Shown here in pieces: positions 2,561 to 59,670 of a stretch of 64,000 nt of DNA. The stretch comes from a virus: positions 1-64,000 of the IMG/VR virus record IMGVR_UViG_3300046804_003617; one strand, 5' to 3'. Each line of letters starts with the position of its first letter. Within the stretch, counting starts at the first letter, position 1. A model generated the notes under the pieces. It was not told the DNA's origin, searched no databases, and worked only from the letters and a program-made list of their open reading frames with translations. A program made the translations under genes and the position numbers.

Positions 2561-3190
2561 TTATCTTACTTCTGACAAGATATCGCGGATGATATTTTCT
2601 ATCTTCAGATATTTGTTGATGTCATTAGCTCCAACAGACGCAATTACTTGACCACGATTTACACTTTCATTGATTGCGCCAGGTGACATATAAGCGCCAC
2701 GTGTTGATGGAGAACTTACAAGGTCAAAGCAAAGTAGCTCAAAGTCATCTTGAACTTCTACGGTGTTTTCATTCATTTGACGAACACTACCAAGACCACG
2801 GCTGCTGATGCCAAGACGAACATTGTTCTTGATAAGTTCACGAGCAATATTACCCGATGGTGTTGTCAATAGTTCAATCTTACCAACGACTGTATCACCT
2901 TCCCAATGGCATTCTACAACATTGTGCGATACATTCTTTAAATTGATGATGGAACTATCTGGATGGTCAAGTTCTCCAAGAGCACGGCGTTCACTTATGA
3001 TTTGTTGATATTTTTCAACTTCGCGAGCAAGCACTTCTTTTGGATACACACGACCATTGTGGTTCTTTTCTCCTGCCTTCTGCAATGGACCGGACAATAC
3101 GAGTGGTGCATTTGGATTAGCACGTGCTTCTGTGAGCATCTGTGGGGTGATGTCAAATGGTATAAAATCTACTAGTAGTTGCTTGCTCAT
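2561..3190 (-). CDS. Prohead protease, T4 gp21-like
   Basis: Motifs NHNGRVYP, ALGELDHP, VSH, LGISSRGLGS and FDLVSSPS are typical of gp21-family proteases. Confidence 0.93.
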   Translation of the reverse strand: MSKQLLVDFIPFDITPQMLTEARANPNAPLVLSGPLQKAGEKNHNGRVYPKEVLAREVEKYQQIISERRALGELDHPDSSIINLKNVSHNVVECHWEGDTVVGKIELLTTPSGNIARELIKNNVRLGISSRGLGSVRQMNENTVEVQDDFELLCFDLVSSPSTRGAYMSPGAINESVNRGQVIASVGANDINKYLKIENIIRDILSEVR

Positions 3191-3733: not shown

Positions 3734-4234
3734 TTATTGTTTTCCCATTCTATTGATTCTCTTGGCAATTTCCTTTAAGCGACCGTGAATTTCCTTCATG
3801 TCAGGCTGAGTTCTTGCCCACAGATTATCGTTGCTATATCCACACTCCGACTTTAGTCTTTCGCAGATGCTTACAAGATATTCAACTTCACCGAGCATCT
3901 TCTTGGCTTGATTGATGCCATAAGAAATCTTGGCGTGATTTTTCATCATATCACTTTCCTTGAAATTTCTATAGCGGCTGCGAGCTTCCATTATATTCAA
4001 ATCACGACGTACTGTTGGCAGGTTTTCATTTTCTGATTCGCCTATTGTGGTATCATCCGTGTCTTCCTTACCAACAACCTTGCCACCAGGCATGCTTTTT
4101 GCAGCAACTTTCTTTTTGCTCTTGTGACCACGAAATGCTGCTGGGGTCATATAACCAGCAACAGCACCAGTGCCTGTCATTTCTTCAATGACTTCTTCAA
4201 CAAGTTCGCGGATGATTTGCTTGGCGTCTTTCAT
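3734..4234 (-). CDS. Hypothetical head-module protein (start revised to 4234)
   Basis: ATG at 4234 overlaps the upstream TAA (TAATG). Begins MKDAKQIIRELVEEVIEE, then TGTGAVAGYMTPAAF. Confidence 0.7.
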   Translation of the reverse strand: MKDAKQIIRELVEEVIEEMTGTGAVAGYMTPAAFRGHKSKKKVAAKSMPGGKVVGKEDTDDTTIGESENENLPTVRRDLNIMEARSRYRNFKESDMMKNHAKISYGINQAKKMLGEVEYLVSICERLKSECGYSNDNLWARTQPDMKEIHGRLKEIAKRINRMGKQ

Positions 4235-4518
4235 TACGTGTAAAGTTGGTCGTCGTGGATTTTGCTGTTCACCCACTCATATGCCATATCATTTAGTTGA
4301 TCAACCGCCTTGTCATCCAATGGAGTACCATCGGTATACTGTGCGGCGCTGATATATGCATCTGAAAAATCAGGATAGTCATTGCGGTCGATGCCGTCGA
4401 TTTCAATGCTCGCCACATCAACCTGTTTACCATTTACAACGAAATTTCCAGTATCTTGCTGACCCATAACTTCTTCAATGGTTTCTCTGATAAGCTGTTT
4501 GAGTTCTTTGCGTGTCAT
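4234..4518 (-). CDS. Small protein with shared N-terminal leader (candidate internal head protein)
   Basis: MTRKELKQLIRETIEE leader followed by an acidic domain containing DYPDFSDAYI. Confidence 0.7.
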   Translation of the reverse strand: MTRKELKQLIRETIEEVMGQQDTGNFVVNGKQVDVASIEIDGIDRNDYPDFSDAYISAAQYTDGTPLDDKAVDQLNDMAYEWVNSKIHDDQLYT

Positions 4519-4522
4519 ATGT

Positions 4523-4786
4523 TTATTTTTTTAGTAGTTGTGCCGTCACATTTGATACAGAATCAAGAATATCTCGTTCATATCCAATAAGGTCCGCTTC
4601 GTGTGTTGCTACATATCTTTTTCCATTGCTTATGGCGGCTTGCTGATTCGCTCCGCGAACAACTATAGAAAACTCTTCATTTCCCATCCGACCACCAAAA
4701 AATGTAACAACCCATTGTGGAGAAGTTGATACGGCCATTTCTTCGATTGTTTCTCTGATCAGTTGTTTTAGTTCTCCGCGTGTCAT
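4523..4786 (-). CDS. Small protein with shared N-terminal leader (candidate internal head protein)
   Basis: MTRGELKQLIRETIEE leader; the body is unrelated to the neighbouring gene. Confidence 0.7.
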   Translation of the reverse strand: MTRGELKQLIRETIEEMAVSTSPQWVVTFFGGRMGNEEFSIVVRGANQQAAISNGKRYVATHEADLIGYERDILDSVSNVTAQLLKK

Positions 4787-5704: not shown

Positions 5705-7576
5705 TTACTGCTGTTTGTCTTCTTGAATGATGTTTGATTCATCAAGTATAGACTTTTTTTCGGTTATGACCTGCTTGTGCTTATTATTATATTTAGCTTG
5801 CAGTGCCTTTTTTATGCTTTTCAGGTCTTCATCCATCGATAATGGACTTCCCCTGTATATATGGCGAGTTGATCGTTCTGTCTTTGATTTCTCTTTGTTT
5901 TCTTTGTCGCCAAGAACATCTTCGCCAAAGTTCTTTTCGTGGGATGATGTGTATTTTTCCTTGTTTCCTGTTTGATCGCGGTTTCCGCGTTCACGATCTT
6001 TGCGAGTTTCTTCTTCAAGCGGAGGCAATCCTCCTTCACCTTCACCGCCACCAGCTTCACCACCGGTCTCTCCGCCGCCTCCAAGATCCTCTGGTCCACC
6101 AGCGCCCATCTTTTGATTGCTGGTCGCCGGGTCATTTCCTTCATCGGTGATCTGCTGAATTCTCCACATTTCTTTTTTATCTTTTATGACTTGCTGCTTA
6201 AGCTCTTCGGCCTCATCGTCGGACATATTGAATATCTTGTTATACATCCAGTCTCTGCTGAACATATTGCTTTCTGCCATATCCGATGCAAGACTGATCT
6301 TACTCTGCCATATTTCGAGTTTCTCCTGTTCAAAGATTGTAGAAGGATTACTTAGTTCCAGTTCAAAATCAACAAGTGATGCGTCCTGATAGCCTTGGAC
6401 ATACAAGTGAACAATGGCAATCTTGGTTAATTCGGATACGATGATGCGCTGAATACGACCGATTGTGCGAGCAAATCTTACATCTTCGGCGGCGAGTGTT
6501 GCTTTACCAGACAGTCCTTCTTCATATCCAAGAAATGCTTTTGGAATCTTAAGCGCAGACATCATCTTGTTACGGATATATTCAAGGTCATCTATGCCGG
6601 TGAAATCCATACCAGGCAGTGTATCAATCTTTGTACCGCTATCACTGCCACGAACAGGCAGATAGAAATCTTCCACCATATTGTTCAAGTTAAAGCGAAG
6701 ATTATAATCGCCAGTGCGTTCGTCGATATATGGAACCTTTTTGACCTGACTGATGATTTTTTGCATCGCCGCATCAATGTCGGCAGGAGGAATGTTTCCA
6801 ACGTCAACAGAGAAGATACGCTTTTCTGGAGCACGCATGATGCGATGGATTAACATCGCATCTTCCATCAAGCTCAGTTGCTTCCAAACACGGCGTGCCG
6901 GTTCTACCATCGATTTACCATATGGTAGAAAATTACTGTCGCTTAATAGACGGAAGTGTGCGATTTCAAAATTTTCATATTCCATTCCGCCACCCATACC
7001 ATCGTGCTGGTATTTGACATAGTTGATGTTGTTTGGATCGCTTCCTTCTATGCGAGTGATTTCATATGGGCTGATTGGATGAACAAGGAATACTCCATAT
7101 TCCGGAGAAATTTCCATACGCAAAAAGAAATCTCCGTATTTGCACATATTGCGTGTCCAACTCCACATATTGAACTCGACGTTCAAGATGTCATAGAAAA
7201 GGTTTTCAAGTATCTTCTTGATGTTTTCATTGTTGCTGCGGATAGTAAGCACTTTTCCAAATTCACTTGGTACCAGACACTCGTCGCTATAGATATCAAG
7301 GGCGGATGCGATGATAGGATCCATATCCATAACGTCATAATCTCTGAACAATTCAAGACGGCTTGCCTGATAAGCCATACTTAAATCGCGGTTATGAAGG
7401 TTGAATGTGCTGCTTCTTAAACGATTAAAACGATCACGCAAGCTGTTTCTGTCTGTTGCGTATTGTATTTCATCTGTATCAACGATCTTAAGATTTTTGC
7501 CACCCACATTACGAACGATAACGTCCGTGCTGAACATTTTTTTCAGTCTACTGAATAAGTCTTTTGTTTCTGCCAT
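5705..7576 (-). CDS. Portal protein, T4 gp20-like
   Basis: Motifs LMEDAMLIHRIMRAPEKRIF, DVGNIP, EDFYLPVRG, TKIDTLPG and ALKIPKAFL. Confidence 0.95.
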   Translation of the reverse strand: MAETKDLFSRLKKMFSTDVIVRNVGGKNLKIVDTDEIQYATDRNSLRDRFNRLRSSTFNLHNRDLSMAYQASRLELFRDYDVMDMDPIIASALDIYSDECLVPSEFGKVLTIRSNNENIKKILENLFYDILNVEFNMWSWTRNMCKYGDFFLRMEISPEYGVFLVHPISPYEITRIEGSDPNNINYVKYQHDGMGGGMEYENFEIAHFRLLSDSNFLPYGKSMVEPARRVWKQLSLMEDAMLIHRIMRAPEKRIFSVDVGNIPPADIDAAMQKIISQVKKVPYIDERTGDYNLRFNLNNMVEDFYLPVRGSDSGTKIDTLPGMDFTGIDDLEYIRNKMMSALKIPKAFLGYEEGLSGKATLAAEDVRFARTIGRIQRIIVSELTKIAIVHLYVQGYQDASLVDFELELSNPSTIFEQEKLEIWQSKISLASDMAESNMFSRDWMYNKIFNMSDDEAEELKQQVIKDKKEMWRIQQITDEGNDPATSNQKMGAGGPEDLGGGGETGGEAGGGEGEGGLPPLEEETRKDRERGNRDQTGNKEKYTSSHEKNFGEDVLGDKENKEKSKTERSTRHIYRGSPLSMDEDLKSIKKALQAKYNNKHKQVITEKKSILDESNIIQEDKQQ

Positions 7577-7601: not shown

Positions 7602-7613
7602 TATAAATATATA
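7602..7613 (-). promoter_or_regulatory. Late-type motif upstream of portal
   Basis: TATATATTTATA. Confidence 0.7.
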
Positions 7614-7637: not shown

Positions 7638-9287
7638 TTAACGTAACAGCCAAGTTAGGTCTTCTGGCTTATTTCCGTGCATACCTGGTCCACCAACATG
7701 CATTTGCCACGGATTATTATGCACGCCGAACGGATTCACTCCTTTACCCTGACTGAGCAAATTTATATTGTGTTGTATTTGTTGGGCGGATGTTGACCCT
7801 ATTCTGTCTATTATCGTGCGTGTAACGCTGTCTGATTCTTTTCTAAGACGCAACGCGACATCTCTGATCCATAATCCTATTCCCATCGCCAGCACAAGGT
7901 CATCGTTATATCCTTCCATAGCTTCTGCTTTTGCGGATACTGCCCCGCTTTTCCATATAAAAACTTGTAGTTCTTCCAATAACCGCTTGCTATGAACTAT
8001 AACTTCTTTGTTTCTGAAATAACTTTCCAATTTTGATATGACCAGTGGACGAGTTTTGCTTGATGTTGTAAATCCCGGCGTCATCTTCTTTTCTTCTCTA
8101 TTCAACTTGTTGGTCATTTGATTTTCCACATCAACATACTGAAGATCGGCTGAACTATAAAATAGATTATCGTAGTTGCTATCCAACACTTCCTGTATTA
8201 CTGCCCAACCAACATTAGCGTTTTCTATAACAAGCAATGCCTTGTTGTATTCTGTTGCCATCGTCATAAGTGCTCGCGCATATTCTTTTGTTGGCAGCTT
8301 GCCTTTATATTCTGCAACTTGTTCCATCGTTTCTATTTCAAGTATCTGAGCGGCACTGAAATCTGACGCATCTCCACGAGCAACGTCGGCGGTGACCATA
8401 TATGATTTACCAGGTTCGGGATATTTGAATATCCAATATCCTTTGTCTATTCCTCGTTTTTCTATTGGTTCACAGGCGTGAGTCTTAGTATACCATTCCA
8501 GTATCGGAATATCGATGACGGTATTACCGGATGTGCTAAATTCACAATCACATTCCTGCGCTGCTCCTCTTTCACCGGACAACTTGGTTTGCTCGTCGCG
8601 CCACTTCTGGTCACGTTCTGGGTGAAGATGCCAAGGCAAACTGATACGGTTCATACCGTTCAAACCTTCTTCGGACTCTGTCCACATTTTATGAAACCAG
8701 TTACCAACACCGTTTGGCGTGGATAGAATGATCGCTTTACCACCTGTTGACAATGTGTATTGTGCCGACAGCCAGATTTCCTCGATGTTGTCAATGAATG
8801 CCGCTTCGTCAACCACCAGCAACGAAAGTGCGCTTGAACGACCAGATGTGCCAGCACTGCTTGCGGCTTTGATTTCAGAACCATTCTTCAGTTTCAGTGA
8901 TAGTCTATTGTCTTCCACGGCTGGAACCTTTAGCCAACTTGGTAGATTGTCATTTGCAAACCGAACCTTGGTAACAATAGCCTTGGATGTTTCCTGCGTG
9001 ATACTTAAGCACAAGATTTGCTTGTCCGTAAAGAATGTCATTAGCCATATGGCATATCCGGATACAAGCGTTGTAATACCCATCTGGCGACTCTTTAGAA
9101 TGATATTCTGGTCGTTCTTTACAAAATCTTCAAGCGCCTTGTCTTGGAATGGGTATGTGAGAAATGGCAGTGTGCCTTTTGTTGGGTGCTGAATCTTGAC
9201 ATACTTCTTCATAAAGTATATCGGGTCTTTGGCACACTTGGCGTATTCCAACTTTATAACATCTTTTAGATTTTGCGTGCTTGCCAT
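7638..9287 (-). CDS. Terminase large subunit, T4 gp17-like
   Basis: KSRQMGIT (Walker A), LLVVDEAAF (Walker B), STPNG, nuclease motifs ADVARG..D and NDDLV. Confidence 0.95.
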   Translation of the reverse strand: MASTQNLKDVIKLEYAKCAKDPIYFMKKYVKIQHPTKGTLPFLTYPFQDKALEDFVKNDQNIILKSRQMGITTLVSGYAIWLMTFFTDKQILCLSITQETSKAIVTKVRFANDNLPSWLKVPAVEDNRLSLKLKNGSEIKAASSAGTSGRSSALSLLVVDEAAFIDNIEEIWLSAQYTLSTGGKAIILSTPNGVGNWFHKMWTESEEGLNGMNRISLPWHLHPERDQKWRDEQTKLSGERGAAQECDCEFSTSGNTVIDIPILEWYTKTHACEPIEKRGIDKGYWIFKYPEPGKSYMVTADVARGDASDFSAAQILEIETMEQVAEYKGKLPTKEYARALMTMATEYNKALLVIENANVGWAVIQEVLDSNYDNLFYSSADLQYVDVENQMTNKLNREEKKMTPGFTTSSKTRPLVISKLESYFRNKEVIVHSKRLLEELQVFIWKSGAVSAKAEAMEGYNDDLVLAMGIGLWIRDVALRLRKESDSVTRTIIDRIGSTSAQQIQHNINLLSQGKGVNPFGVHNNPWQMHVGGPGMHGNKPEDLTWLLR

Positions 9288-9679: not shown

Positions 9680-11797
9680 TTATACTATTTTGTCTATCAT
9701 TTTTATAACGTCGCCCGAACTTATCTGCTTGGTGCACTCGAAATCTTTGCCTCTGGGACACCAGTTCCAGTTTCCTTTGTCAAATGTGTGACTGACATCG
9801 TTCCAACATCCGTGGCATACATTCTTGTTTATTACTCTGTAGTCTGTATTGAATTCGGCAAACTCTTCGCTGAAGCCGCTGATAAGTATTACCTTTTGTC
9901 CAGCAGCCCAAGATAGCCAACTTAGTCCAGAACCAAGTCCAATGAAAAACTCAGCACCTTTTATCTGCGAAAGCCTTTCTTCCAGATGTAGATCTCCGGT
10001 TTTATCGATGGCTCCTTCTGGAATATAGTTCATCTTGTCCTTGCCTCCATATGAACTATGTCTGTCTATGCACCATACTTCATATCCTTTTTTGTTTAGA
10101 TAGTTTATGACTTCTTTCCATCCATCTGGGTTATTCCAATATTTTGCCTGCGCTGTGCTTTGGGTTGCTATGCAAACATATTTCTTGTCGTGCTTGACCG
10201 GAACAATTTCCAATTTTGGCTTATATTCAACAAGTGGCAGTCCAAGTATGTTTGGTGCAATCAATGCGAGAGAAGTTTTCTTTGGATCAACCGGTATGTT
10301 TCCGTTCCAATTGTTCTGGTCGAAATATCCGATGGAATATGCGGCATAATAGTTGTCATCGCTGTCGTTTGTTCTGGAGAATTTTATATCTTTGTAGTTC
10401 TTGGAGAATATTTCCAGAAATTGATCGTTGTATACCACGCAAGTGAGATCGCAGCCGTGAATTTGCCTGAACTTTTCAGCGGAACCAATATACGCCAATA
10501 TGTCTCCCATACTGTTGGTGTCAAATATCAGTTTTACCTTTTTGTTTTTTAGGTCAAAAGTGTGTGACTCCACCAAAATTTCCTCATTATCATTCATCTC
10601 ATATACCTCAACCACCCAATTTCTGAAATATCTTGGGATAGAAGAACTCCACATATTGTTTGTTATTGTGGTTTCATATGTGACGGTATTAACATCCGTG
10701 TCTGTGAATTTTATTTTGTATTTTTTGCTCACTGGACCAAGTATTTCAACCTTGGGTCCGGATGGAAACCATATCTTGATGTTGTTTTTTACTTCTTTGT
10801 GCGTCTTTTCGCAATTGATATAGTGGTTTATGATTCTGTTGGCAAATATGGTTTCACGATATTCGCTGTATATCTTCACCAAATCGTATACTCGTGAATC
10901 ATATGAGTTCTCGGCGGCGTTTTCCAACGCATCCTTTCTGAATTGATCGTAGTTTTGATCCACCAAACTGATAGCCGCTTCTGCTTCGGTGATGTCTCGT
11001 TTGCAAACAGCCATCCCCTTATATGAGGATTCTTCAAATGTTCCAATGACCGGCAGTCCGCAAGCCATAGCTTCCAGCAATGTAAGATTTGGGTGACCGG
11101 CTTCAAGTTCCGACAAATGAACAAATGCGTCGTGCTCATTATACAGATGGACCAGCCACTTTTCATCCAAATCATACAGCTTGGTCAGATTGGAATAGTT
11201 GTTCAATTTTGGATCAAGCGTCTTGAAGAAATTATTGTTGTTGCTTGGTCCGGCGATTGTGATCTGCATATCAAGATTCATCGCCGCTTGTATCGCAAGA
11301 CCAAATCCTTTTCTGTCAACGCTCTGGTTGTATGCATAACCATTGTTGGCCACACACAACAGTTTCAATTTTTTGTGTCTTACACGTTCGTTACATTTAA
11401 ATACGCTCGTGTTGACCGCGTGGCTGAAATAACGAAGTTTCTTGCTGCCGAAATATGGAATAAGATATTTGCACGGAGAAAGAGAAATTACGCTATTTTC
11501 AATCGCTTGTAGATTTTGCTTGAATAAATCAGAGTCTTTTCCATACAAATAGGCATGATGATCGTGAATGGTGAATATATAAGGTATTCCTCGTTCGTGA
11601 CACATATTCGCCAAATTGGCAACGTGAACGTGAACGATCATACTATCATCATACTTTATATCATTAAGATACAATATCTCGTTGTTGACCCCGATATTTT
11701 CCAGCGACAAATGATAATCCCAGATGATTTTTTCAACGGCACCCCATCCATTCGGTGGAATGGCGATTAGACCTGGAGTTACATTGATTACTTTCAT
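9680..11797 (-). CDS. GT4 glycosyltransferase fused to an Aah/TibC-type (autotransporter) protein O-heptosyltransferase
   Basis: N-terminal GT4 (GWGAVEK, EAGHPNLTLLEAMACGLPVI). C-terminal SMGD, STAQAKYWNNPDGW, FIGLGSGLSWLSWA, VILISGFS and the four-Cys CHGCWN..WCP..FECT motif. Confidence 0.85.
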   Translation of the reverse strand: MKVINVTPGLIAIPPNGWGAVEKIIWDYHLSLENIGVNNEILYLNDIKYDDSMIVHVHVANLANMCHERGIPYIFTIHDHHAYLYGKDSDLFKQNLQAIENSVISLSPCKYLIPYFGSKKLRYFSHAVNTSVFKCNERVRHKKLKLLCVANNGYAYNQSVDRKGFGLAIQAAMNLDMQITIAGPSNNNNFFKTLDPKLNNYSNLTKLYDLDEKWLVHLYNEHDAFVHLSELEAGHPNLTLLEAMACGLPVIGTFEESSYKGMAVCKRDITEAEAAISLVDQNYDQFRKDALENAAENSYDSRVYDLVKIYSEYRETIFANRIINHYINCEKTHKEVKNNIKIWFPSGPKVEILGPVSKKYKIKFTDTDVNTVTYETTITNNMWSSSIPRYFRNWVVEVYEMNDNEEILVESHTFDLKNKKVKLIFDTNSMGDILAYIGSAEKFRQIHGCDLTCVVYNDQFLEIFSKNYKDIKFSRTNDSDDNYYAAYSIGYFDQNNWNGNIPVDPKKTSLALIAPNILGLPLVEYKPKLEIVPVKHDKKYVCIATQSTAQAKYWNNPDGWKEVINYLNKKGYEVWCIDRHSSYGGKDKMNYIPEGAIDKTGDLHLEERLSQIKGAEFFIGLGSGLSWLSWAAGQKVILISGFSEEFAEFNTDYRVINKNVCHGCWNDVSHTFDKGNWNWCPRGKDFECTKQISSGDVIKMIDKIV

Positions 11798-12630
11798 GCC
11801 TTGCCTCCGACATCCAACAAATAATTCATTGTCTGATATGCCAGCTTTCTGTCCTTGAAGCCGTGATACATTATTATTTGTGTAGAGTCATATACATATT
11901 CCCAGTCCGCGCCTAACGAATCTATATTCATTCCGATGCGCTGATCCTTGATGACTTCTGTTTCCACCTTCTTGACCAGTTCCGGGTTGTGAGTATTCAG
12001 GAATGCATATCCAAGATTCTGCGTGGCGTTTCTCTTGAACAAGCATACATTGAACCCTGTTTCATCTTGGAATGGAAAATATACCTTCTTTCTTGGTATG
12101 AGGTATTCGTTCTTGCACATCGAAGTATATTCTTCGAAGAAGTCTCTGCAATTGCGATTGAATGAATATATACAAGACCATACATATCTCATGGTGCGTT
12201 GTGGCACACCAAAGTATTTCATCAATGCGCTTTCGTCGTATACGATTCTATTGCCATCTATGACTTCATAAATAAAAGGATATTCGTGTGGTCCCATACT
12301 CGCCAACGGATATGAATGTGTATGCTCTATGGCGGCAGGATTGAACCGACGAGAATACAGCACATCCGTGTCAGTGAACATAAAATGCTGTTCGTCTGGG
12401 AACATATCCATAGTAAGAAGCGATAGTTCCGCCTTATAGAAATGAAAACTGGGATAAGACGGAATAGGTGCCAAGCGCACTTTCTTTACCTTGTTAAACT
12501 CATATACCGAATCAAACCCGATGGTATAGTATACTATGCGGTCATTTTCGCGCAGCCTTGGCAACAAGGTCTGTATGCAGGAAAACGCCTGATATTCGCA
12601 GTTCTTGTCTGTGTATAAAAATATGATCAT
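11794..12630 (-). CDS. Putative GT-A glycosyltransferase
   Basis: FMFTDTDVL (DxD), FQDE and C-terminal YHG; translationally coupled within the GT cluster. Confidence 0.6.
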   Translation of the reverse strand: MIIFLYTDKNCEYQAFSCIQTLLPRLRENDRIVYYTIGFDSVYEFNKVKKVRLAPIPSYPSFHFYKAELSLLTMDMFPDEQHFMFTDTDVLYSRRFNPAAIEHTHSYPLASMGPHEYPFIYEVIDGNRIVYDESALMKYFGVPQRTMRYVWSCIYSFNRNCRDFFEEYTSMCKNEYLIPRKKVYFPFQDETGFNVCLFKRNATQNLGYAFLNTHNPELVKKVETEVIKDQRIGMNIDSLGADWEYVYDSTQIIMYHGFKDRKLAYQTMNYLLDVGGKA

Positions 12631-14612
12631 AACTTTGTGGCAAATATTGATTCGCTGGATCCGGCATATTCTTCCACCGGCTTGTTGATAGCTTCTTCCA
12701 CCTTGTATCCCATAGACTCGACACGTTCGATGAGCTTGCGATACTTTTCCTTATAATCTTTTTCAAAGAAATGGCATTCTATGAACATGGTGTCTATATG
12801 CTCCGCCAATGCGGGGTCCATATTCTCGATGACATTATATTCCGATCCTTCAACGTCTATTTTAAGCAGATTGATGTGCTTCAGTCTATCAACCAGATCC
12901 TTTATGGTGATGGTTTCCACGATTGTCTTTTGACTTGGAAGCAATCCAGCACGATGCTGTGCTATATTTTCTGGTGGTATGGCGCTGCTGATGATTGAAT
13001 TCTCTGGGCAATTATAAAACGTGATTGGCTCATTATTATGACTCAGCGCCTTGTCTATCACTGTCACATTGTCGTTGAATTCATAATTGCGTCTTAAATC
13101 GGCCACGGCTTCGGCGTTGCATTCCACGGAAGTGATCTTTCTTGAAATCTTGCTGCGAATCAAGAATTCTGTGAATACTCCGATATTTGCACCAATATCC
13201 ACGGCAACCGGATATTTGGTATTTTTATTCAGCCATTTGGCGTATTTTCCAAGCACAAAATATTCCGAATAATTATACCAGTAAGGTGCACGATTGCTCA
13301 GTGATATGGTCGGAACATTCACAAATTTTCTGAAGAATGGTTCCTCATACAATTGTTCTTGTGTATCTTTTTTATACACGCAAAACTTTATACCGGCAAC
13401 GTGCTCATCTTTTTCATAGTCTCTGGTCTGCTTTGCGATTGGGATCATCCAATAATAGCAGTTGGCTGGAAAAGATGGATATTCCGTTGACCATAGTATG
13501 GCGTCGGACTTGTATTCTCGCAATGCCACGATGATAGGGAAATCAACCCCACGACCAGAACTATATGTCATTTTTTGCTCGTTGATGTCCCAAGTCGCCT
13601 GAAACAGATAATCGTTGTGCAATATGGTATGAGGTGTAGAAGATTTTGTTTCCATTTGTTTTATTCCTAATTTATTTAAAATTTTGTTTATATTGGCATC
13701 TTTTGATCCGAAATCAAGATATTCTATGTTTTCGTATTTGTCATACATTCCGAGATATACTGGAAGGTTGTATATCAATGATGGTATATTATATGATATG
13801 GCTTCTCGGATTACAAGCGGACTTGTTTCCTTGTCGTGCACGGTTCCACGCGATGTGAAAAGGAATAGATCCGCTGCTTGATAAAAATTCTCGACATCTT
13901 TTCTTTCATCCCACCATTTACAATTGCTTGGGAAGTTTTTCATTATAGGTTGCCAATAATCCCTGAAATTGTCCGCTTGGTTTCCCACGAAATGAAATTG
14001 TATCGGCTGTCCAAGCAAGCTTCTGGCATATTCCACTATTTCCAATTGGTTCTTGCGTGGAGTAAATAGCCCGACGTTAATCACGTGCTTCAGCTTTGGA
14101 TCCAATCCCAACACCTTCAACGCCTCTTCACGTGGCTTGCGTGGATTTATCACGATTGGATATTCATATACATCCATCGGAATATCCAAAGATTTCAACG
14201 ACTCCAATTGATATCTGCTTACGAACAGTATCTTGTCGGGAAAGAACACTTTGTTTTTTGGATCAAAGCTGCTGTCGTGGGATGTTTCGATGAGTTTGTA
14301 TGGACGATCCTTGCGATATAGTTTCTTGGCAATTTCGCCGTCCATAAAATATTCCGGCATTTCTTCAAGATGCACCACTTCCGGATTTATCTTTTCTATA
14401 TGGTCGAGTAGCTTTGGTCTGTCGTAATTCACAGATATGAATCTGTCTTTCAACAGTTCAATTATCTGGTTCTTTTGGATGGTGAATCTGCCGTGGTCTG
14501 CGTATTCTATGCAATATACTTCGTGTTCTTTGTTCAACACTTGTATCTTCTTCAATAGAAACTGTGGACACCCACCTGTAGAAAGATGGGGAGCAATATA
14601 AAGAATACGCAT
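12627..14612 (-). CDS. GT4 glycosyltransferase fused to an FkbM-family methyltransferase
   Basis: N-terminal HLSTGGCPQ, VGLFTPRKNQ, ETSPLVIREAI; C-terminal VDIGANIGVF and LKIDVEGSE. Confidence 0.85.
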   Translation of the reverse strand: MRILYIAPHLSTGGCPQFLLKKIQVLNKEHEVYCIEYADHGRFTIQKNQIIELLKDRFISVNYDRPKLLDHIEKINPEVVHLEEMPEYFMDGEIAKKLYRKDRPYKLIETSHDSSFDPKNKVFFPDKILFVSRYQLESLKSLDIPMDVYEYPIVINPRKPREEALKVLGLDPKLKHVINVGLFTPRKNQLEIVEYARSLLGQPIQFHFVGNQADNFRDYWQPIMKNFPSNCKWWDERKDVENFYQAADLFLFTSRGTVHDKETSPLVIREAISYNIPSLIYNLPVYLGMYDKYENIEYLDFGSKDANINKILNKLGIKQMETKSSTPHTILHNDYLFQATWDINEQKMTYSSGRGVDFPIIVALREYKSDAILWSTEYPSFPANCYYWMIPIAKQTRDYEKDEHVAGIKFCVYKKDTQEQLYEEPFFRKFVNVPTISLSNRAPYWYNYSEYFVLGKYAKWLNKNTKYPVAVDIGANIGVFTEFLIRSKISRKITSVECNAEAVADLRRNYEFNDNVTVIDKALSHNNEPITFYNCPENSIISSAIPPENIAQHRAGLLPSQKTIVETITIKDLVDRLKHINLLKIDVEGSEYNVIENMDPALAEHIDTMFIECHFFEKDYKEKYRKLIERVESMGYKVEEAINKPVEEYAGSSESIFATKL

Positions 14613-14642: not shown

Positions 14643-15284
14643 TCAATCTTTTTTATTCAATACTTTGCTGATTTCCGCGTTGACTTTCTTTAATTCTTTT
14701 TCAGCTGCCTTGATTTTCTTCAAGCAAGTTACCCAGTCCTTCTGAACATGTTCTTTCAATTCTCCGCGAGCTTCATTGCTCCATTCTTCGACCATACCGG
14801 TTGAATTTGCCCAAGTCATCGTCTTTGATTCTTCGCTTTCCAGATAGTCTTTGCTTTCTCTGAGCTTTTGCTTGATATCGCCCAGATATGCTAATTCGTT
14901 TTCAAGAAGCTTCTTTGTTTCATACAGCTTGAATTGACCCTTGGCTCTCAGATCAGTCTCTTCATTTGAAATGCAATCCAAGCATTTCTTGGTACGATAA
15001 AACATCTTGCGGTCCTGCTTTGTTCCCCAACGTATTTCTCTACCGCAGCACTCACACTTATCGTTGACTTCTTCACGTATGATATCCATAACACGAGTGA
15101 CTGCTTGTGGACCACTCGCGGTCTGCACCCAATTCTTTCCGCTGGCATCTGTCCAAGTTTCGCCTTCTTTGCGAATAATATACTTGTCCTTGTCCCCAGT
15201 ATATCCCACTTGGATGAATGGCCGTTCTCCAGCCAGATAACCTTTTACAATATCAATGTTGCTTTTACCTTGTGCTCTCTTCAT
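14643..15284 (-). CDS. Hypothetical protein with putative Zn site and coiled coil
   Basis: CECC...CLDC; 213 aa. Confidence 0.65.
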   Translation of the reverse strand: MKRAQGKSNIDIVKGYLAGERPFIQVGYTGDKDKYIIRKEGETWTDASGKNWVQTASGPQAVTRVMDIIREEVNDKCECCGREIRWGTKQDRKMFYRTKKCLDCISNEETDLRAKGQFKLYETKKLLENELAYLGDIKQKLRESKDYLESEESKTMTWANSTGMVEEWSNEARGELKEHVQKDWVTCLKKIKAAEKELKKVNAEISKVLNKKD

Positions 15285-15316: not shown

Positions 15317-18211
15317 TCAGTCGGCAGTTTCTGCTCCGGACTTTATTCTTTTATCTATAAAAAGACGCAAAAGATACACGATATATGCCTCACCGGCATA
15401 TTTGTTGGTAAGAACAGCCTGAGTGACATTATTCAGCTTTTGCTGCAAGAAAGCCAGCTGACTCTCCGTCTTTGCTGTGCTGTCTGGATCAACTTCTCCG
15501 CTGGCTTTGATCTCGTTCCACTTTGCCTGTATTTCCTTAAGTTCCTTTTGTGCGGATGCCAATACTTCATTTGCGCGAGTTCTTACTGCTTCGGGTGAAG
15601 CATCAATTCCTTGTGCTTTCAATGAATTATATACTTCGAGTGTAACTTTGTTTGCGGAAGCATCGTCTGTGACATCTCCCACCTTTGCTTTTGCGGCGGC
15701 GATGGTTTTATTAAGTGTGGCGGCGTGAGCGGTTGTCATACCAAGAACCTTGGTAAGAAATGCACCATCAAGAACCTTTTCAGCATTTCCAACTGCCTTA
15801 CGAGTTCCCCAAGTCTTTTCAGCAATCTTGTGAAATATTTCAGAAGTGCCCTTGATAAAAACAGGCTCATCGGGAAGATTGATTTTCAACACAACGCCTT
15901 CAACTGGATATTTACGAGAAGCGTCTGAACTTAGGAACGTATTGATGCGTTCGGCATACTTGTTGAGCACTCCTTGCATCTGATCCTTGACCTTGCGGAT
16001 GATCTTTTTTAAAGCGTCCTTCTCGGGACTTTCTTTGCGAGTTTTCAACAATGCTGCTGCTTGTGATAGTTTGGCTGGGTCGCCAACGAGCTTTTGAATT
16101 CCGGAAAGATTAAATACCAATCCTTCTCTGCTCAGTGATCCGTGCTTGCTGATATTGTACACTTTCCATTCTGGATCACTTGTGCTTTCAACCATATCCA
16201 ATATTTCTTCGGACGATTCTTCTCCGTGCTTTTCACAGGTTGCTCCAAAGCACACAAACGCTCCCCTGTTTCCAAGTTTGGATTTGTTGTATTTGGTGGA
16301 AGCAAACACGATATCACCAAGCTCATCGCCCTTATGGGTCAATACAGGAAACATTTCAGATGTGATCTTGAATGCGCCGTGTTTCTTTTTTATTGCCTGC
16401 AACTTTGTTTGCAATGGCTTGTATCCGTTCAGGAACTTCAGTGCCTCATAGAAATGAACGGTGAATGGATTATTCAGCTTTTCCGCGTTGGATATGGTTA
16501 CTTCTCCGCTGTTGGCGGATTCTACAAAGAATTGACCAGACGCATTCAATCCCCATTTGCAGGGAGAGCCATCAAGTTTTTCAGTGACTGATGCATTATT
16601 GGCTACGCTCAGATCCATTTTACCCTGTTTTACCAGTGGCTGGATACGGCGTAGAAAGTCCAAGAATTCAGCGTCGGTCATTTCATTTGCACCTGAGAAA
16701 CGCTGGATGGAAAGTTTGTTTGCTTCTTCAAGCCTTGGATGTAGCAGATCCGGCTCCGCCGCTTGGCTCTTTGCCATATTTTCCTTATATGCGTCGATGA
16801 TCTCTTTTCTGAATTGCGGGAACTTGAAATCCTTGGACTTGAACAAAGCATACACTTTTTCAAATGTATCAATGTCCGCGAATGTCTTGTCTTCACCAAA
16901 CAGGAACTTTGCCACAAAATCCATATCCGTGGACTTTAGCTCTCTGCTAACTTCCTTGCGCTTGCCCTTGGCATCAACCGTGAACTTTTGCAGGAAGAAT
17001 CCTTCTGCCGGTGAAAGCATATATTTCTGCTTCAAACCATTTGGTCCAGCGTCTTCAATGATCTTGGAAAGTATTTCAGATATCAGCAGGTTTCTGAATT
17101 TTGCCTTGTATTGACTTTCGGGGGCACCGGAATAAAACTTTTCTCTCCAGCTTCTCACACCAAGCATAACATCAACCTGCACATATGGCTCTTTGTTTGG
17201 ATCTTCACTGCCGTCCTTGTTTACAAATGGCTGGTTGACAGCCTTTCCAAGCAAATGAAACTGAAACAGTCCTTTTGCCGGTTTTCCTGCCGGAAACTTC
17301 TTTGATAATGCATCAAACAGAGCATCCTTGTCAGCCGTAGGAGGCAGCTTCAAGAACTTAAGCATATCTTTTGTATCAACTGCGATGTCTATATCTCCCA
17401 GCAATGGCTTGCTGAAGTTTCCTATTTTGGAGTATTGGATCTTGCCGAGACCATTGTCTTTCAGTACTTGTGTTATTGTTGGGTCAAGGTTTTCACGCCT
17501 CACCGCAGAGACTTCGACATCAAACATTTCTCCACCTTCTTTGAGCTTCTTCTTGGCTGGTTTTTCCGGTGGAACATATCCGGCGGCTTCCTTGAATTTA
17601 TCAGAGAGCAGCTTTGCTATCTTAGGATCATACCAACCGAAGATCTTATCAAATGTTTCCTTGCTTGGATTTGACGCGATCATACCACGGATTTCGGTTC
17701 CGCTAAGTTCCTTGCCGTCAACTTTAAGGGAAAAATGTGGAATAACAATCAGATATCCGTGCTTTGTGAAATCTTCAAGGTTGTTCTTGTTCTTTTCATA
17801 AAACTGTAAGTATGCTGGAGAACCATCTTTCTTTACGCCGCCAACGTTGAATCTTTCAGCGTCTTTCTTTCCGAATCCAAATACTATGGCGGAGTTTTCG
17901 GGAAGCATATCCAATACTTCCGTTGCAATATATGGGTTCTTCACTTGAACAATCTTGTCAGCGGGAACTCCATACTTTACCCACACTGCTTTCTTTTCAG
18001 CAAAGCTTAATGGGCTATCTGGCAATTCTACCTTATCGGATGTGACAACGAAAGTTTTATCTACACCAAACTTGTCGGCCAAATACTTGTATGCCTGATA
18101 ATGGTGCGGTCCTGCTGGATGGAAACGGCCAGGATAGATGGCGTATACTTGATTGCTGTTTACGATTTCGTTATATAACTGTTCAATGATTTGCTCGGTA
18201 AGTTTGTCCAT
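15317..18211 (-). CDS. Three-domain protein: HIGH-type cytidylyltransferase-like + Pol-beta-type nucleotidyltransferase + ATP-dependent (RNA) ligase-like
   Basis: YPGRFHPAGPHH and SGTEIR; GDIDIAVD...VQVD; TEKLDG...EMF...EGVVLK...FIK. Confidence 0.65.
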   Translation of the reverse strand: MDKLTEQIIEQLYNEIVNSNQVYAIYPGRFHPAGPHHYQAYKYLADKFGVDKTFVVTSDKVELPDSPLSFAEKKAVWVKYGVPADKIVQVKNPYIATEVLDMLPENSAIVFGFGKKDAERFNVGGVKKDGSPAYLQFYEKNKNNLEDFTKHGYLIVIPHFSLKVDGKELSGTEIRGMIASNPSKETFDKIFGWYDPKIAKLLSDKFKEAAGYVPPEKPAKKKLKEGGEMFDVEVSAVRRENLDPTITQVLKDNGLGKIQYSKIGNFSKPLLGDIDIAVDTKDMLKFLKLPPTADKDALFDALSKKFPAGKPAKGLFQFHLLGKAVNQPFVNKDGSEDPNKEPYVQVDVMLGVRSWREKFYSGAPESQYKAKFRNLLISEILSKIIEDAGPNGLKQKYMLSPAEGFFLQKFTVDAKGKRKEVSRELKSTDMDFVAKFLFGEDKTFADIDTFEKVYALFKSKDFKFPQFRKEIIDAYKENMAKSQAAEPDLLHPRLEEANKLSIQRFSGANEMTDAEFLDFLRRIQPLVKQGKMDLSVANNASVTEKLDGSPCKWGLNASGQFFVESANSGEVTISNAEKLNNPFTVHFYEALKFLNGYKPLQTKLQAIKKKHGAFKITSEMFPVLTHKGDELGDIVFASTKYNKSKLGNRGAFVCFGATCEKHGEESSEEILDMVESTSDPEWKVYNISKHGSLSREGLVFNLSGIQKLVGDPAKLSQAAALLKTRKESPEKDALKKIIRKVKDQMQGVLNKYAERINTFLSSDASRKYPVEGVVLKINLPDEPVFIKGTSEIFHKIAEKTWGTRKAVGNAEKVLDGAFLTKVLGMTTAHAATLNKTIAAAKAKVGDVTDDASANKVTLEVYNSLKAQGIDASPEAVRTRANEVLASAQKELKEIQAKWNEIKASGEVDPDSTAKTESQLAFLQQKLNNVTQAVLTNKYAGEAYIVYLLRLFIDKRIKSGAETAD

Positions 18212-18216
18212 ATTCT

Positions 18217-18228
18217 TATAAATATATA
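18217..18228 (-). promoter_or_regulatory. Late-type motif upstream of the 964-aa tri-domain gene
   Basis: TATATATTTATA 5 nt before ATG. Confidence 0.7.
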
Positions 18229-18253
18229 CAAAACTCGCATTATAGACGAGTTT

Positions 18254-19138
18254 TTATAGAGCAAGATTCAATTGTCTAAGCTTTTTATAATATGGTATAG
18301 ACCAAGCAAATTCCGCAGGAAAATTTTCTATATTGGCTTCAAAGTCGTAGGTATATTCCTTGATTGCGGAAAGATAATGGTCTTTGATTGTTATCTTATC
18401 CGATTTAAGAGTGTTATATAGAGTTATATTGGCGGCGTGCTTTACATATATACCAAAAAATTTCTTGGTTATTGTTTCTCCGTCTTGGAATAAATCCTTA
18501 TATTCTTTTTTTCTTGCCAATATTCGTGGCATAGTATGTCTTAGCAAAAACATATCCGCATCTTCCTCGTTTCGTCGAAGCATTTCTTTGATGATTTTTG
18601 CTCGGAATCCGTAGCAATTCGAAAGCAGCCCTCTTGCAACTCTTTCGCTATACATATCCAACTTTGCTGGCAACTGCGGATGCCTGTAACAATAGCAGGT
18701 TCTGGTAGAATCCACACCTATAGAAACCGCATCCCAAAGAATAAGACTGTTTTTTGGAAAATCCAATTCTGATATTTCTGGAGACAACCAATCGTCATCA
18801 TCCAATGGTATGATAATATCGTCATCGCGCAATGCCATCAATTCCTCTCTGGCAGAATCTTGGATATGAACATATGGCAGCTTCCACGTGCTTTTTATTT
18901 TTTTGTCCACGTGGTTATAAATGATACGATCAGATATGTTTTTGATGCAGCTTAGTTGTATTTGATGAACCTTTTTCCGGTAATCGTGTATAGAAATCTT
19001 GAATAATTTATCGAATTCTTCCGCACATTGTCTGGCATCCACTGCCATACTTCCGTGACCAACTTCCGGCATCATACTTTCTTTGAATAGTGCTCGTATA
19101 AAAAATACAATTTTGTGGTTCTTTTTATTTTCGGTCAT
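18254..19138 (-). CDS. Putative GT-A glycosyltransferase-like protein (start revised to 19138)
   Basis: IIIPLDDDDWL motif; ATGA overlap with the upstream gene. Confidence 0.5.
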   Translation of the reverse strand: MTENKKNHKIVFFIRALFKESMMPEVGHGSMAVDARQCAEEFDKLFKISIHDYRKKVHQIQLSCIKNISDRIIYNHVDKKIKSTWKLPYVHIQDSAREELMALRDDDIIIPLDDDDWLSPEISELDFPKNSLILWDAVSIGVDSTRTCYCYRHPQLPAKLDMYSERVARGLLSNCYGFRAKIIKEMLRRNEEDADMFLLRHTMPRILARKKEYKDLFQDGETITKKFFGIYVKHAANITLYNTLKSDKITIKDHYLSAIKEYTYDFEANIENFPAEFAWSIPYYKKLRQLNLAL

Positions 19139-20307
19139 GGCAACAGATATTTGTAATACTTTTTGATATGACCAAGCTTTCCTCCAGTATTCGCTATACT
19201 TCCCATATAATGAACGGTTACAGAATCCGGATTGGTAACTGTGCGAGTTTCTTCGGTATTTACCGGTATAAAACAAAATTGGTCTTTAAATTTAAATATA
19301 TTAGATATCATTAATATGTTAAAGTACGTATTCATGAAACTTTGTTCGAAAAAGTATTGACCCGGCCACTTCTGGGCAAATTCGTAAATGTTTTTGAAAT
19401 GTTTGATCATGGTCGAAGTATTCATAAAGAAAAACTGACCAGCATTGAACGCAAATATACATTTGAAATCTAGCACTGCTATATGAACATCCGAGTATTG
19501 TTGTATCGTGTGATATACGGACCTGTGCAATGTCTTGTCAATTCTGTGAGATGCGCTGTAAAATACGTTTGGTCTGACTCTTTCTTCAAAAATTTTGGAA
19601 AGATCTCCCACGATCAATATGTCCAAATCCAAAAACAATATTTTCTTATAATCGTTTATTTTCTCAAACTCATAGATTTTTAGCTTCTGCATAGATGCTT
19701 CAACTGTATCCACAATCTTGTGCATTATGAGATAATGAACGTTGAAATGCTTGATGAGGGGCATTTTTTCTATTAATTTTTTGGTACGCTTGTCTGTTAT
19801 GAACAACAGATCAAAGTTCTGATAGGGCTGTTTCTTGAGACCCTTAAGCAAGTATTTCAATAATTCTATATACCCAGAATCTCCGAAAGCTGAAAAATAT
19901 ATCAAATTCTTTTCGCCTTTAATGTTGTCATCTATCTTTATATCTACGCCTCGTTTTATCCACTTCTTCAGCATTTTTAGCGATTTTTCATCGCCAAGTT
20001 TATCTGGATTTTTGATGAATTCTAGACCTCCATTAATAACGGAAAATTCTTTGTCTTTTTTTCTAAGCGCTATTCTTCGTCTCCAAGTTTTGTCTCTTGA
20101 AAATGGACAAAATTCAACAGAATCGCAAGATTCATATACATCATCGGGTATGATAATAAATTCCTGTGCATTGTGATTAAGCACCATCATTTCCTGCTTT
20201 GATATTTCACGTGTATAAATTGCCTTGTTATTTTTAACGGCAACAACCAATACGTGCAATATTTCGTTGAGATTTCCTATATGCGTATAGGGTATTTTTA
20301 TATTCAT
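19135..20307 (-). CDS. GT8-like glycosyltransferase
   Basis: KLKIY...ILFLDLDILI...FNAG...EQSFMN...VHYMG. Confidence 0.75.
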   Translation of the reverse strand: MNIKIPYTHIGNLNEILHVLVVAVKNNKAIYTREISKQEMMVLNHNAQEFIIIPDDVYESCDSVEFCPFSRDKTWRRRIALRKKDKEFSVINGGLEFIKNPDKLGDEKSLKMLKKWIKRGVDIKIDDNIKGEKNLIYFSAFGDSGYIELLKYLLKGLKKQPYQNFDLLFITDKRTKKLIEKMPLIKHFNVHYLIMHKIVDTVEASMQKLKIYEFEKINDYKKILFLDLDILIVGDLSKIFEERVRPNVFYSASHRIDKTLHRSVYHTIQQYSDVHIAVLDFKCIFAFNAGQFFFMNTSTMIKHFKNIYEFAQKWPGQYFFEQSFMNTYFNILMISNIFKFKDQFCFIPVNTEETRTVTNPDSVTVHYMGSIANTGGKLGHIKKYYKYLLP

Positions 20308-30695: not shown

Positions 30696-30707
30696 TATAA
30701 ATATATA
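30696..30707 (-). promoter_or_regulatory. Late-type motif
   Basis: TATATATTTATA upstream of 30674. Confidence 0.7.
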
Positions 30708-35739: not shown

Positions 35740-35750
35740 TATAAATATAT
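35740..35750 (-). promoter_or_regulatory. Late-type motif
   Basis: ATATATTTATA upstream of 35717. Confidence 0.65.
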
Positions 35751-38991: not shown

Positions 38992-39002
38992 TATAAATAT
39001 AT
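38992..39002 (-). promoter_or_regulatory. Late-type motif
   Basis: ATATATTTATA 5 nt before ATG 38986. Confidence 0.7.
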
Positions 39003-56409: not shown

Positions 56410-57231
56410 TCACGCGGTCGCAACGTCCAACAATTTTGCTTTTGATTTTATCAAATTAAACAGTTGTTGCGGATCTATTTCATCCGCAACTTTTAACTTT
56501 TCCAAATCAACTTCTTCGGCTACTTTTTGTGCGGAAACAAGCTCATCTACGCTAATTATACCGGCTCTCGCCAACAAATGTGCAACAAACTCCGAACAAA
56601 AAAACTGGTCTTGACCCGTCTCTTCGGCGTTTATTTTTGATTTTTTGAATCTATTGACCAAATTCCACATTTTCGGAAATTTTTCCTTAATCTGTCTGAT
56701 TATTCCCTTGCTATCATATCCCTCTTCACCGGCCTTTAGCATCGACTTCAATTGTTCATATGCTTTGATTATTTTTGACTCGTCGCCGCCGAGGTTGAAA
56801 ATTATATAATTTTGCGGGTTGTCTTTTATTTCACTTCCGTCTCTGAAACCAACTCCCGATGTTACCGCATCCAGTATTCTACCATCGCTCATAACAAATC
56901 CGGCGTGATTCACTCCTTGCAAATCGCCGTGGATAATTTTATTCACGATTTGTATACCGGATCCAAAACTGGTCTGTTTATCCGGATTTAATTTTTCCTG
57001 ACCCTTTTTAATTGCCCTCGCAACAATCGGAATATTTCCTCCCAATTTTGCAGCCAAATCCAAAAATATTACAGGCAGATTGAATTTTGTTATATCAAAA
57101 AATACTTTTATACCAGGAACTTCGGTCTTCCATTGCCCAGACTTGGCATCTTTAACGACGGGATCAATTTCTTGAAGATTTATTTCTTCGATAGCTTCTC
57201 GGATCAATGCTCTGAGTTCGGACTTCTTCAT
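56410..57231 (-). CDS. Permuted NlpC/P60 papain-like enzyme (YaeF/YiiX-like) with shared leader
   Basis: NHAGFV (His) precedes GYD and FFCSEFVA (Cys); leader MKKSELRALIREAIEE. Confidence 0.75.
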   Translation of the reverse strand: MKKSELRALIREAIEEINLQEIDPVVKDAKSGQWKTEVPGIKVFFDITKFNLPVIFLDLAAKLGGNIPIVARAIKKGQEKLNPDKQTSFGSGIQIVNKIIHGDLQGVNHAGFVMSDGRILDAVTSGVGFRDGSEIKDNPQNYIIFNLGGDESKIIKAYEQLKSMLKAGEEGYDSKGIIRQIKEKFPKMWNLVNRFKKSKINAEETGQDQFFCSEFVAHLLARAGIISVDELVSAQKVAEEVDLEKLKVADEIDPQQLFNLIKSKAKLLDVATA

Positions 57232-59658: not shown

Positions 59659-59670
59659 TATAAATATATA
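59659..59670 (-). promoter_or_regulatory. Late-type motif upstream of the nuclease-like gene
   Basis: TATATATTTATA 5 nt before ATG, directly after the dnaK terminator. Confidence 0.7.

Follow-up and report, generated by a model that had tools for sequence, protein, structure and literature searches.

A tri-modular nucleotidyltransferase protein encoded beside the head genes of a distant T4-like myovirus: a candidate packaged polyprotein for nucleic-acid end repair

The window analysed here, a stretch of 64,000 nucleotides (positions 1 to 64,000 of the IMG/VR virus record IMGVR_UViG_3300046804_003617), is the structural region of a phage in which every gene lies on the minus strand, and all features described below are on that strand. 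Our subject is the gene at 15317..18211, recognised from the open reading frame (ORF) list, its translation and 24 full-length homologues from metagenomes (38-90% identity), which encodes a tri-modular protein of 964 amino acids (aa), referred to as P0001. AlphaFold2 (AF2) modelling on the homologue alignment yields three compact domains, named M1, M2 and M3 from the N-terminus onwards, and the segments in which the predicted local distance difference test score (pLDDT) falls below 50 are residues 1-3, 12-19, 214-226, 495-500, 624-641 and the C-terminal tail. The domain limits agree with those of homologous modules that occur independently of one another (query residues 20-210, 221-483 and 497-958). 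A first-pass annotation, made from the DNA sequence alone, had described three mechanistically distinct nucleotidyl-transfer folds in one chain: all three folds were confirmed, its domain boundaries coincide with the three AF2 domains split by the low-pLDDT linkers 214-226 and 495-500, and the motifs it quoted are present in every domain, with key residues invariant or at least 90% conserved in the alignment of 22 full-length homologues (40-87% identity) that was used to assess conservation.

P0001 gave no significant match in Pfam, PHROGs, NCBIfam or the PDB sequences, and PDB-sequence searches with a whole-family profile (A1) and an M2 profile (A5) returned nothing for M2 or M3. Among cultured phages, megablast found zero matches and tblastn two records only, each covering M1 only. 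A search of 1.84 billion cluster representatives (clusters at 50% identity) retrieved 1,876 relatives at E <= 1e-3; P0001 belongs to a very large, uncharacterised superfamily with almost no Pfam coverage.

M1 (aa 20-213; 17573..18154) is a HIGH-motif adenylyltransferase with a Rossmann-like nucleotidyltransferase fold, carrying the motif GRFHPAGPHH and, as the second signature ISxTxxR, the sequence SGTEIR175. Residues G28, F30, P32, H37 and R175 of SGTEIR are invariant and R29 is at least 90% conserved. By sequence as well as by structure its nearest neighbours are NadM and the archaeal nicotinamide mononucleotide (NMN) adenylyltransferases (NMNATs), and both NMNAT and phosphopantetheine adenylyltransferase (PPAT) outscore the sugar/polyol enzymes. 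M1 of P0001 has no Pfam or NCBIfam match and the NadM/NMNAT equivalog cutoffs were never reached; relatives of P0001 do pass PF01467 (Pfam CTP_transf_like). Mutant structures of the Methanothermobacter thermautotrophicus (M. thermautotrophicum) NMNAT figure among the listed matches of M1 (1m8f, R11A; 1m8k, H19A; 1m8j, R136A), and R29, H37 and R175 have the same spacing as R11, H19 and R136, although this mapping is one that we infer. The HIGH motif takes either of two forms among M1 and the relatives P0026-P0186, with 33 modules reading H.GH, 95 reading x.HH and none reading x.GH. Because the two forms are mutually exclusive and x.GH is never seen, the x.HH pattern suggests that the catalytic His may have been relocated in M1-type modules. 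The role of M1 is the least certain of the three; our best guess at its substrate is NMN, which would yield NAD+.

M2 (aa 226-492; 16736..17536) is a minimal Pol X-like nucleotidyltransferase of the Pol-beta superfamily. It displays G[SN]..GDxD (G264-N, D273, D275) and the third palm Asp (D347), so that its catalytic triad is intact; G264, D273, D275, Q345 and D347 are invariant, and N265 and G272 are at least 90% conserved. The module starts at G226, aligns to residues 142-338 of Pol beta only, without the 8-kDa deoxyribose-phosphate (dRP)-lyase and helix-hairpin-helix DNA-binding domains, and has the extent of the minimal Pol X of African swine fever virus (ASFV). CCA-adding enzymes, poly(A) polymerases, cGAS/OAS-like enzymes and MNT/KNT-type nucleotidyltransferases are not among its listed structural matches, an absence from the lists that does not amount to exclusion. 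The RlaP family (PF10127) has no Pfam match in P0001 or in 39 relatives, and what it shares with M2 is the association with a ligase only.

M3 comprises a nucleotidyltransferase domain (aa 497-796; 15824..16723) with an Rnl2/REL1-like covalent ligase fold and an all-helical C-terminal domain (aa 797-958; 15338..15823). The alignment shows motif I as E544-K545-L-D547-G, motif III as E619, motif IV as EGVVLK (771-776, from E771 and G772) and motif V as K787-GTS, and across 40 diverse homologues these residues are at least 90% conserved except for K/R at 776. The closest matches of the adenylyltransferase domain are nick-sealing RNA ligases. Like that of Rnl2, the C-terminal domain consists of helices alone, yet it matches generic helical bundles only, and there is no oligonucleotide/oligosaccharide-binding (OB) domain. 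M3 of P0001 matches neither the Pfam RNA-ligase models nor DUF6267, a Pfam ligase-like family that occurs in relatives (see below). As modelled, M3 looks like a nick-sealing RNA ligase.

The three domains are joined by short linkers with a common motif. Linker 1 (aa 214-226; 17534..17572; pLDDT below 50) holds LKE225/GG, encoded by codons 17537-17545, and linker 2 (aa 493-500; 16712..16735; pLDDT below 50 at 495-500) holds LEE496/A, encoded by codons 16724-16732. The first-pass annotation had pointed to L-x-E sites at the domain junctions, and they are real: of the 70 Glu residues of P0001, 11 have L, I, V or M at P3, and only the invariant E225 and E496 keep [LIVM]xE in 100% of the family (h-x-E in what follows). 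In 165 non-redundant relatives [LIVM]xEGG occurs 83 times, where 8.6 occurrences are expected (about 10-fold enrichment) and the maximum in 200 shuffles was 20. It opens 31 of 32 M2 modules as well as about 35 copies of an unrelated ligase-like module that starts EGGAAGHM, internal M3 modules open with (L/I/M)xE-G, and many relatives begin with MLLLE-GG, MFLTE-GG or MMILE-GG. In the most distant standalone M2 genes Met stands directly before GG (the called start in locus L035), and therefore the mature N-terminus of M2 would be GG, whether by removal of Met or by a cut after Glu. Since the joint is common to three unrelated folds and lies within unstructured linkers, it is best explained, as far as sequence and models can tell, as a processing signal. 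A double-glycine leader of the bacteriocin type, cut after GG, was also considered for ..LLLEGG and was set aside, as GG is kept in leaderless M2 copies; no C39-type peptidase was noticed among the roughly 30 window proteins scanned.

P0001 starts with MDKLTEQIIEQLYNE, and AF2 together with conservation delimits an N-terminal leader of aa 1-15 (MDKLTEQIIE/QLYNE/; 18167..18211) with candidate cleavage after E10 or E15. The leader claimed by the earlier annotation thus has a counterpart in the model, namely a predicted helix over residues 2-17 followed by the low-confidence stretch 12-19; IIE10 is conserved in 68-73% of the family. Comparable Glu-terminated leaders occur in about half of the relatives that begin with M1 and in other late proteins of this phage. 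Standalone M2 genes of relatives carry leaders of the form ..RKLIREEI..LLLE/GG, a type that is also found on small proteins encoded in the interval between portal and protease. In the window these are two tandem paralogues of 87 and 94 aa (4234..4786) that start MTR(G/K)ELKQLIRETIEE, with identical 11-residue leader cores (ELKQLIRETIEE) and differing bodies; from their position they would correspond to the T4 core proteins gp67/gp68. An unrelated late protein of 273 aa (56410..57231) has the same leader type (MKKSELRALIREAIEE), and a late protein of 149 aa (49480..49929) has a related one (MKKNELVDIIRTLVKEE) with the late motif described below in front of its gene. Judged by its sequence, the P0001 leader is a more divergent member of this KLIREEI-type style.

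The modules are extensively shuffled in relatives. When module hidden Markov models (HMMs) were applied to 186 retrieved relatives, the architectures found were M1-X in 70, M1-M2-M3 in 24 and M3-X in 20, and further M1..M2, M2-M1, doubled M1 and each module alone. X of the M3-X proteins is another HIGH-motif domain with the classical HxGH. The order in P0057 is M2-M3-HIGH, and P0036 repeats the HIGH / Pol-beta / ligase order with a ligase from a different family (DUF6267). As they keep occurring together whatever the order, the HIGH-motif enzyme and the ligase may well act jointly, and so may the Pol-beta enzyme, though its presence is less constant. Linker 2 corresponds to the C-terminal end of standalone M2 proteins and to the start of M3-first proteins. 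The earlier annotation had proposed to look for the domains as separate adjacent genes, and such an arrangement is found in IMG/VR loci L006-L013 and L032, where a gene for leader, M1 and a ligase-like module is followed, within a few bases, by a second gene for leader, hxE-GG and a standalone M2 of 290-370 aa. In the cultured Microcystis phage Mel-JY01, a 639-aa protein of M1 plus ligase-like type (WWT39297.1) has the leader MGKLINILLSELRLHIFSE and the joint IIAE/GG and is encoded in the same place as P0001, upstream of the large terminase gene. Other enzymes replace M2 or add to it: in P0127 M1 is fused to the head of a class II CCA-adding enzyme/poly(A) polymerase (2e-30), in P0158 its partner is a P-loop kinase of the AAA_33/Zeta type, and a cRec cyclic-phosphate-processing domain follows M2 in P0030 and occurs in one other relative. 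Each of these additions is of a kind that serves in RNA end healing. P0068 has one borderline match, at the Pfam cutoff, to an ADP-ribosyltransferase (ART)-like segment. The EGGAAGHM module is widespread (P0034, P0039, P0045, P0078 and others; L039:9001-10920) and common in X regions; it starts EGGAAGHMxHPFD, has TEKxDGQN 39-40 residues further on and ends with PxEGxVFxYxGKxYKxTGxFAPxN. DUF6267, with KWDGSP, is a third ligase-like type. Our literature search found no paper on the P0001 module families, on DUF6267 or on Mel-JY01.

A candidate processing enzyme is encoded close by, in the form of a prohead protease of the T4 gp21 type (2561..3190; Pfam Peptidase_S77, 8.9e-26 and 91 bits against a cutoff of 27; phrog_207, 9e-54). 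The portal gene lies at 5705-7576 and that of the T4-type large terminase (TerL) at 7638-9287. In distant relatives the gene order is conserved as module protein(s), p213, TerL, portal, p290, p178/p180 and protease. The downstream neighbour of the P0001 gene, p213 (213 aa; 14643..15284), is conserved by synteny in L001-L005 and L014-L033 and has no Pfam or PHROG match. In distant relatives it abuts TerL on the upstream side and often overlaps the module gene by 4 nucleotides (nt); it is possibly the small terminase subunit. The glycosyltransferase/FkbM cluster that separates p213 from TerL in the window (9680-14612) is present only here and in L001-L004, whereas L005 and L014-L032 have no glycosyltransferases at this point, and there TerL directly adjoins p213 and the module protein. 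The cluster is a lineage-specific insertion of this phage and its closest relatives.

The late-type motif reported earlier for the P0001 gene is also real. The late promoter-like sequence TATATTTATA lies at 18217..18226, ending 5 nt before the ATG, and the window holds 9 copies of it where 0.25 would be expected (2345-2354, 7602-7611, 18217-18226, 30696-30705, 35740-35749, 38992-39001, 47073-47082, 49947-49956 and 59659-59668). Each copy lies on the coding strand with an ORF start 5-40 nt downstream; the genes headed in this way include the portal gene, genes of the baseplate region and other structural-region genes, two leader-bearing genes and the P0001 gene. Five of the nine end 5-7 nt ahead of the start codon without a Shine-Dalgarno sequence, and this spacing suggests that late mRNAs may be leaderless or nearly so. 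A terminator-like hairpin with a 9 bp stem (18230..18254) closes the upstream gene. A sigma-70 promoter scan of the window gave fewer matches than shuffled sequence and was uninformative.

Our best explanation of these features, to which we assign a probability of about 45% when taken in full, is that a distant T4-like myovirus expresses P0001 late, as a cargo polyprotein, which would be cut in three and injected for nucleic-acid end repair. P0001 would be made alongside the head proteins and would enter the prohead core by means of its Glu-terminated N-terminal leader, as do T4 Alt and the internal proteins (IPs). Cuts by the Peptidase_S77 prohead protease behind the leader (at E10 or E15), LKE225 and LEE496 would then release three enzymes of about 24, 31 and 52 kDa, to be ejected with the DNA. 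Their function would be the pre-made repair of broken nucleic-acid ends, most likely of host or phage tRNA or other RNA cut by defence nucleases: M2 may restore one or a few 3' nucleotides, M3 may seal the break, and M1 may transfer AMP from ATP onto a phosphate-bearing acceptor, for which NMN is the best guess. A kit packed in advance could still work once a defence nuclease has stopped translation, which would provide a rationale for packaging. Loading into the capsid and cutting into three enzymes, taken by themselves, are the best reading of the locus and in our judgement have slightly the better of an even chance. The same proposal in the first-pass annotation has gained circumstantial support, from the presence of the Peptidase_S77 gene in the head block, the h-x-E joints, the late motif and the leader, and it stays conjectural. 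RNA is preferred as the substrate because a CCA-adding enzyme, a P-loop kinase and cRec appear as fusion partners in relatives and because M3 is Rnl2-like; these features likewise favour the putative RNA/tRNA repair kit suggested earlier, with DNA gap repair as a less probable rival.

Several observations weigh against this explanation. P0001 has no end-healing kinase or phosphatase, there are no tRNA genes in the window, and the best structural matches of M2, with middling Z scores of 7.4-7.9, are family X DNA polymerases. M1 lacks the first His of HxGH and has GxHH instead (GRFHPAGPHH, with H37 invariant and a His at the Gly position). As to processing, the GG that follows E225 is already part of M2, and the conservation of 'EGG' is to that extent a property of the domain itself. 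The Glu before M3 persists in proteins that start with MPRE- or MARE-, in which P3 is not L/I, and it may be structural, because a propeptide of four residues is unlikely as a signal. The P3 residue of the E15 site is Tyr rather than L/I in the P0001 clade, and about half of the M1-first relatives have no leader.

The main rival is repair of DNA, because the structural neighbours of M2 are DNA polymerases. A Pol X-like M2 would fill short gaps or add a (ribo)nucleotide and the ligase would seal, in nick or gap repair of the injected phage genome or in joining of genome ends, and the protein might be packaged in this case too. We consider this rather unlikely, since M3 best matches RNA ligases and has a helical C-terminal domain in place of the OB domain of DNA ligases, M2 is devoid of the dRP-lyase and helix-hairpin-helix parts of Pol beta, and the accessory domains of relatives (CCA-adding enzyme, cRec) are those of RNA-end enzymes. 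It could also be that P0001 is simply a fusion of several enzymes that stays in the cytoplasm and undergoes neither packaging nor cleavage, in which hxE-GG would represent flexible linkers or N-terminal caps and the head-gene position would be historical. The assignment of GG to M2, the retention of Glu in MPRE-type starts and the many leaderless M1-first proteins would all fit such a fusion; so would the fact that the RNA repair enzymes of T4 itself are not known as components of its virion. We nevertheless hold it to be unlikely, if a contender to be taken seriously: one joint motif, about 10-fold enriched, precedes three unrelated folds, and the joints fall within linkers that AF2 leaves unordered; the leader type recurs on proteins encoded at the prohead-core position, the synteny with TerL, portal and S77 is kept across distant relatives despite changing domain content, and the P0001 gene carries the late motif.

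Two further explanations centre on M1. M1 might be a true NMNAT that replenishes NAD+ against NAD-depleting defences, with the other modules as accessories. The affinity of M1 to NadM and archaeal NMNAT in sequence and structure, the inferred correspondence of R29/H37/R175 with R11/H19/R136, the ART-like segment in P0068 at the Pfam cutoff and the occurrence of NadM/NadV salvage genes in phages (PMC9503650) speak for it. However, M1 has neither a fused nor a neighbouring NadV/Nampt or Nudix partner, and in the surveyed phages NadM was always accompanied by NadV (PMC9503650); moreover, the constant partners of M1 are ligase-like and Pol-beta modules. We regard NAD+ replenishment as improbable, and the earlier suggestion of NAD salvage draws its support only from the NMNAT-like nature of M1. 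Least probable by far is that M1 makes a nucleotide-activated sugar or polyol, in the manner of HldE/RfaE or TagD, for the neighbouring glycosyltransferases. This idea, also put forward in the first-pass annotation, is disfavoured because the glycosyltransferase cluster is a lineage-specific insertion that is missing at the locus in most relatives (L005 and L014-L032 among them, its presence being limited to this phage and L001-L004). NMNAT and PPAT score above the sugar/polyol enzymes, and M1 retains its link to Pol-beta modules and, across about 1,900 clusters, its fusion to modules of the ligase-like kind.

Returning to the explanation that P0001 is packaged and cut, the nearest parallels are T4 Alt and the IPs, for targeting, gp21 cuts and ejection, and the polyvalent proteins. 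In T4, a capsid-targeting sequence of about 10 aa loads the IPs into the scaffolding core (PMC9958956), and gp21 removes N-terminal peptides from the IPs and Alt (PMC5694885; PMC9958956); Alt is cut at ITE-6 and LTE-619 and loses MELITE (PMC5694885), a short N-terminal peptide comparable to the MLLLE-type starts of many P0001 relatives. P0001, as read from its sequence, resembles Alt and IPI-III in its short Glu-terminated leader, its (L/I)xE sites, the presence of a gp21-family protease in the genome and its late gene, and, if packaged, it would resemble Alt in delivering an enzyme ready-made. It differs from them in that three unrelated enzymes are joined in one chain with internal joints, for which the protease would act as a polyprotein processor, and in that the cargo would be nucleotidyltransferases rather than an ADP-ribosyltransferase or a nuclease inhibitor. 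The polyvalent proteins (Iyer et al. 2017, PMC5512222) likewise have at least two unrelated enzyme domains in one phage polypeptide encoded near virion genes; they are predicted to be packaged, processed and injected, and Pol-beta nucleotidyltransferases are among their domains (PMC5512222). P0001, in contrast, has none of the marker domains (MuF, ART, MPTase/zincin peptidase, ParB-like), and its processing is proposed to depend on the prohead protease at a joint motif and not on a built-in peptidase. Whereas polyvalent 2H domains were never seen with RNA ligases (PMC5512222), ligase-like modules form the core of the P0001 group. What would be new relative to known cargo is thus the presence of internal joints cut by the head protease, a ligase-centred nucleotidyltransferase cargo and a constant NMNAT-like partner.

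On the enzymatic side, P0001 combines an RNA-ligase fold with a putative template-independent or short-patch 3' adder, in the 'heal, refill, seal' logic of T4 Pnkp with Rnl1/Rnl2 and of RlaP, the latter being Pol-beta nucleotidyltransferases that act next to RNA ligases and extend damaged RNA 3' ends by 1-2 nt (PMC7824862; bioRxiv 10.64898/2025.12.29.696909). In relatives of P0001 a kinase, cRec or a CCA-adding enzyme comes on top. Unlike RlaP, M2 has no PF10127 match and is structurally Pol X-like, and M3 matches no Pfam RNA-ligase model. The P0001 enzymes are also fused, putatively late and encoded in the head-gene block, unlike those of the T4 Pnkp/Rnl and RlaP systems, and a HIGH-motif adenylyltransferase as constant partner distinguishes them from known RNA repair systems. 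Among systems that combine a polymerase with a ligase to mend breaks, the polymerase of bacterial LigD has the archaeo-eukaryotic primase (AEP) fold and not that of Pol X; the ligases of LigD and of the ASFV pair of Pol X and ligase have OB domains and act on DNA, and neither system is packaged or has a HIGH-motif partner. M1, for its part, departs from NadM and archaeal NMNAT in its GxHH (first His replaced, His two positions later) and in having no Nudix domain and no NadV partner.

Tentatively, and with less assurance than for P0001 itself, the h-x-E/GG joint may be regarded as a general 'cargo grammar' of a large group of aquatic T4-like phages. An enzyme module flanked by joints and headed by a KLIREEI-type leader would be loaded into the prohead and freed by the head protease, and the maturation protease of a double-stranded DNA phage would serve as a polyprotein processor, much as in RNA viruses. 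NMNAT-like and Pol X-like enzymes, three ligase-like families, the CCA-adding enzyme, the kinase and cRec would then be shuffled as cassettes, constituting injected RNA-repair kits that are active before any phage gene is translated. If this is true, ready-made nucleic-acid repair enzymes would be a new class of injected phage cargo, which would sidestep translation-blocking defences, such as anticodon nucleases, that also block the synthesis of phage repair proteins. The prohead protease would process polyproteins at a recognisable joint motif, and this motif would provide a sequence rule to predict virion cargo in uncultured phages. Regardless of packaging, the superfamily shows an NMNAT-like adenylyltransferase in constant association with modules of the RNA-ligase-like and Pol-beta kinds, for which no biochemical rationale has been described.

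The remainder of the window encodes, besides the glycosyltransferases, a 2557-aa fibre, a baseplate wedge protein, a primase and an SbcCD fusion protein. The SbcCD fusion is a single ORF of 1068 aa (30708-33914) with an N-terminal SbcD-like phosphoesterase and an SbcC-like ATPase. Downstream of the protease, a very acidic, low-complexity protein rich in Ala, Pro and Glu (3-1037) is cut by the contig end; it looks like a scaffold rather than the major capsid protein, the gene of which falls beyond the contig end. Upstream of the P0001 gene, the 340-aa ORF at 18254-19276, called from a TTG start, shares 142 nt with the GT8-like ORF at 19135-20307; the 340-aa ORF probably begins at a start codon further downstream.

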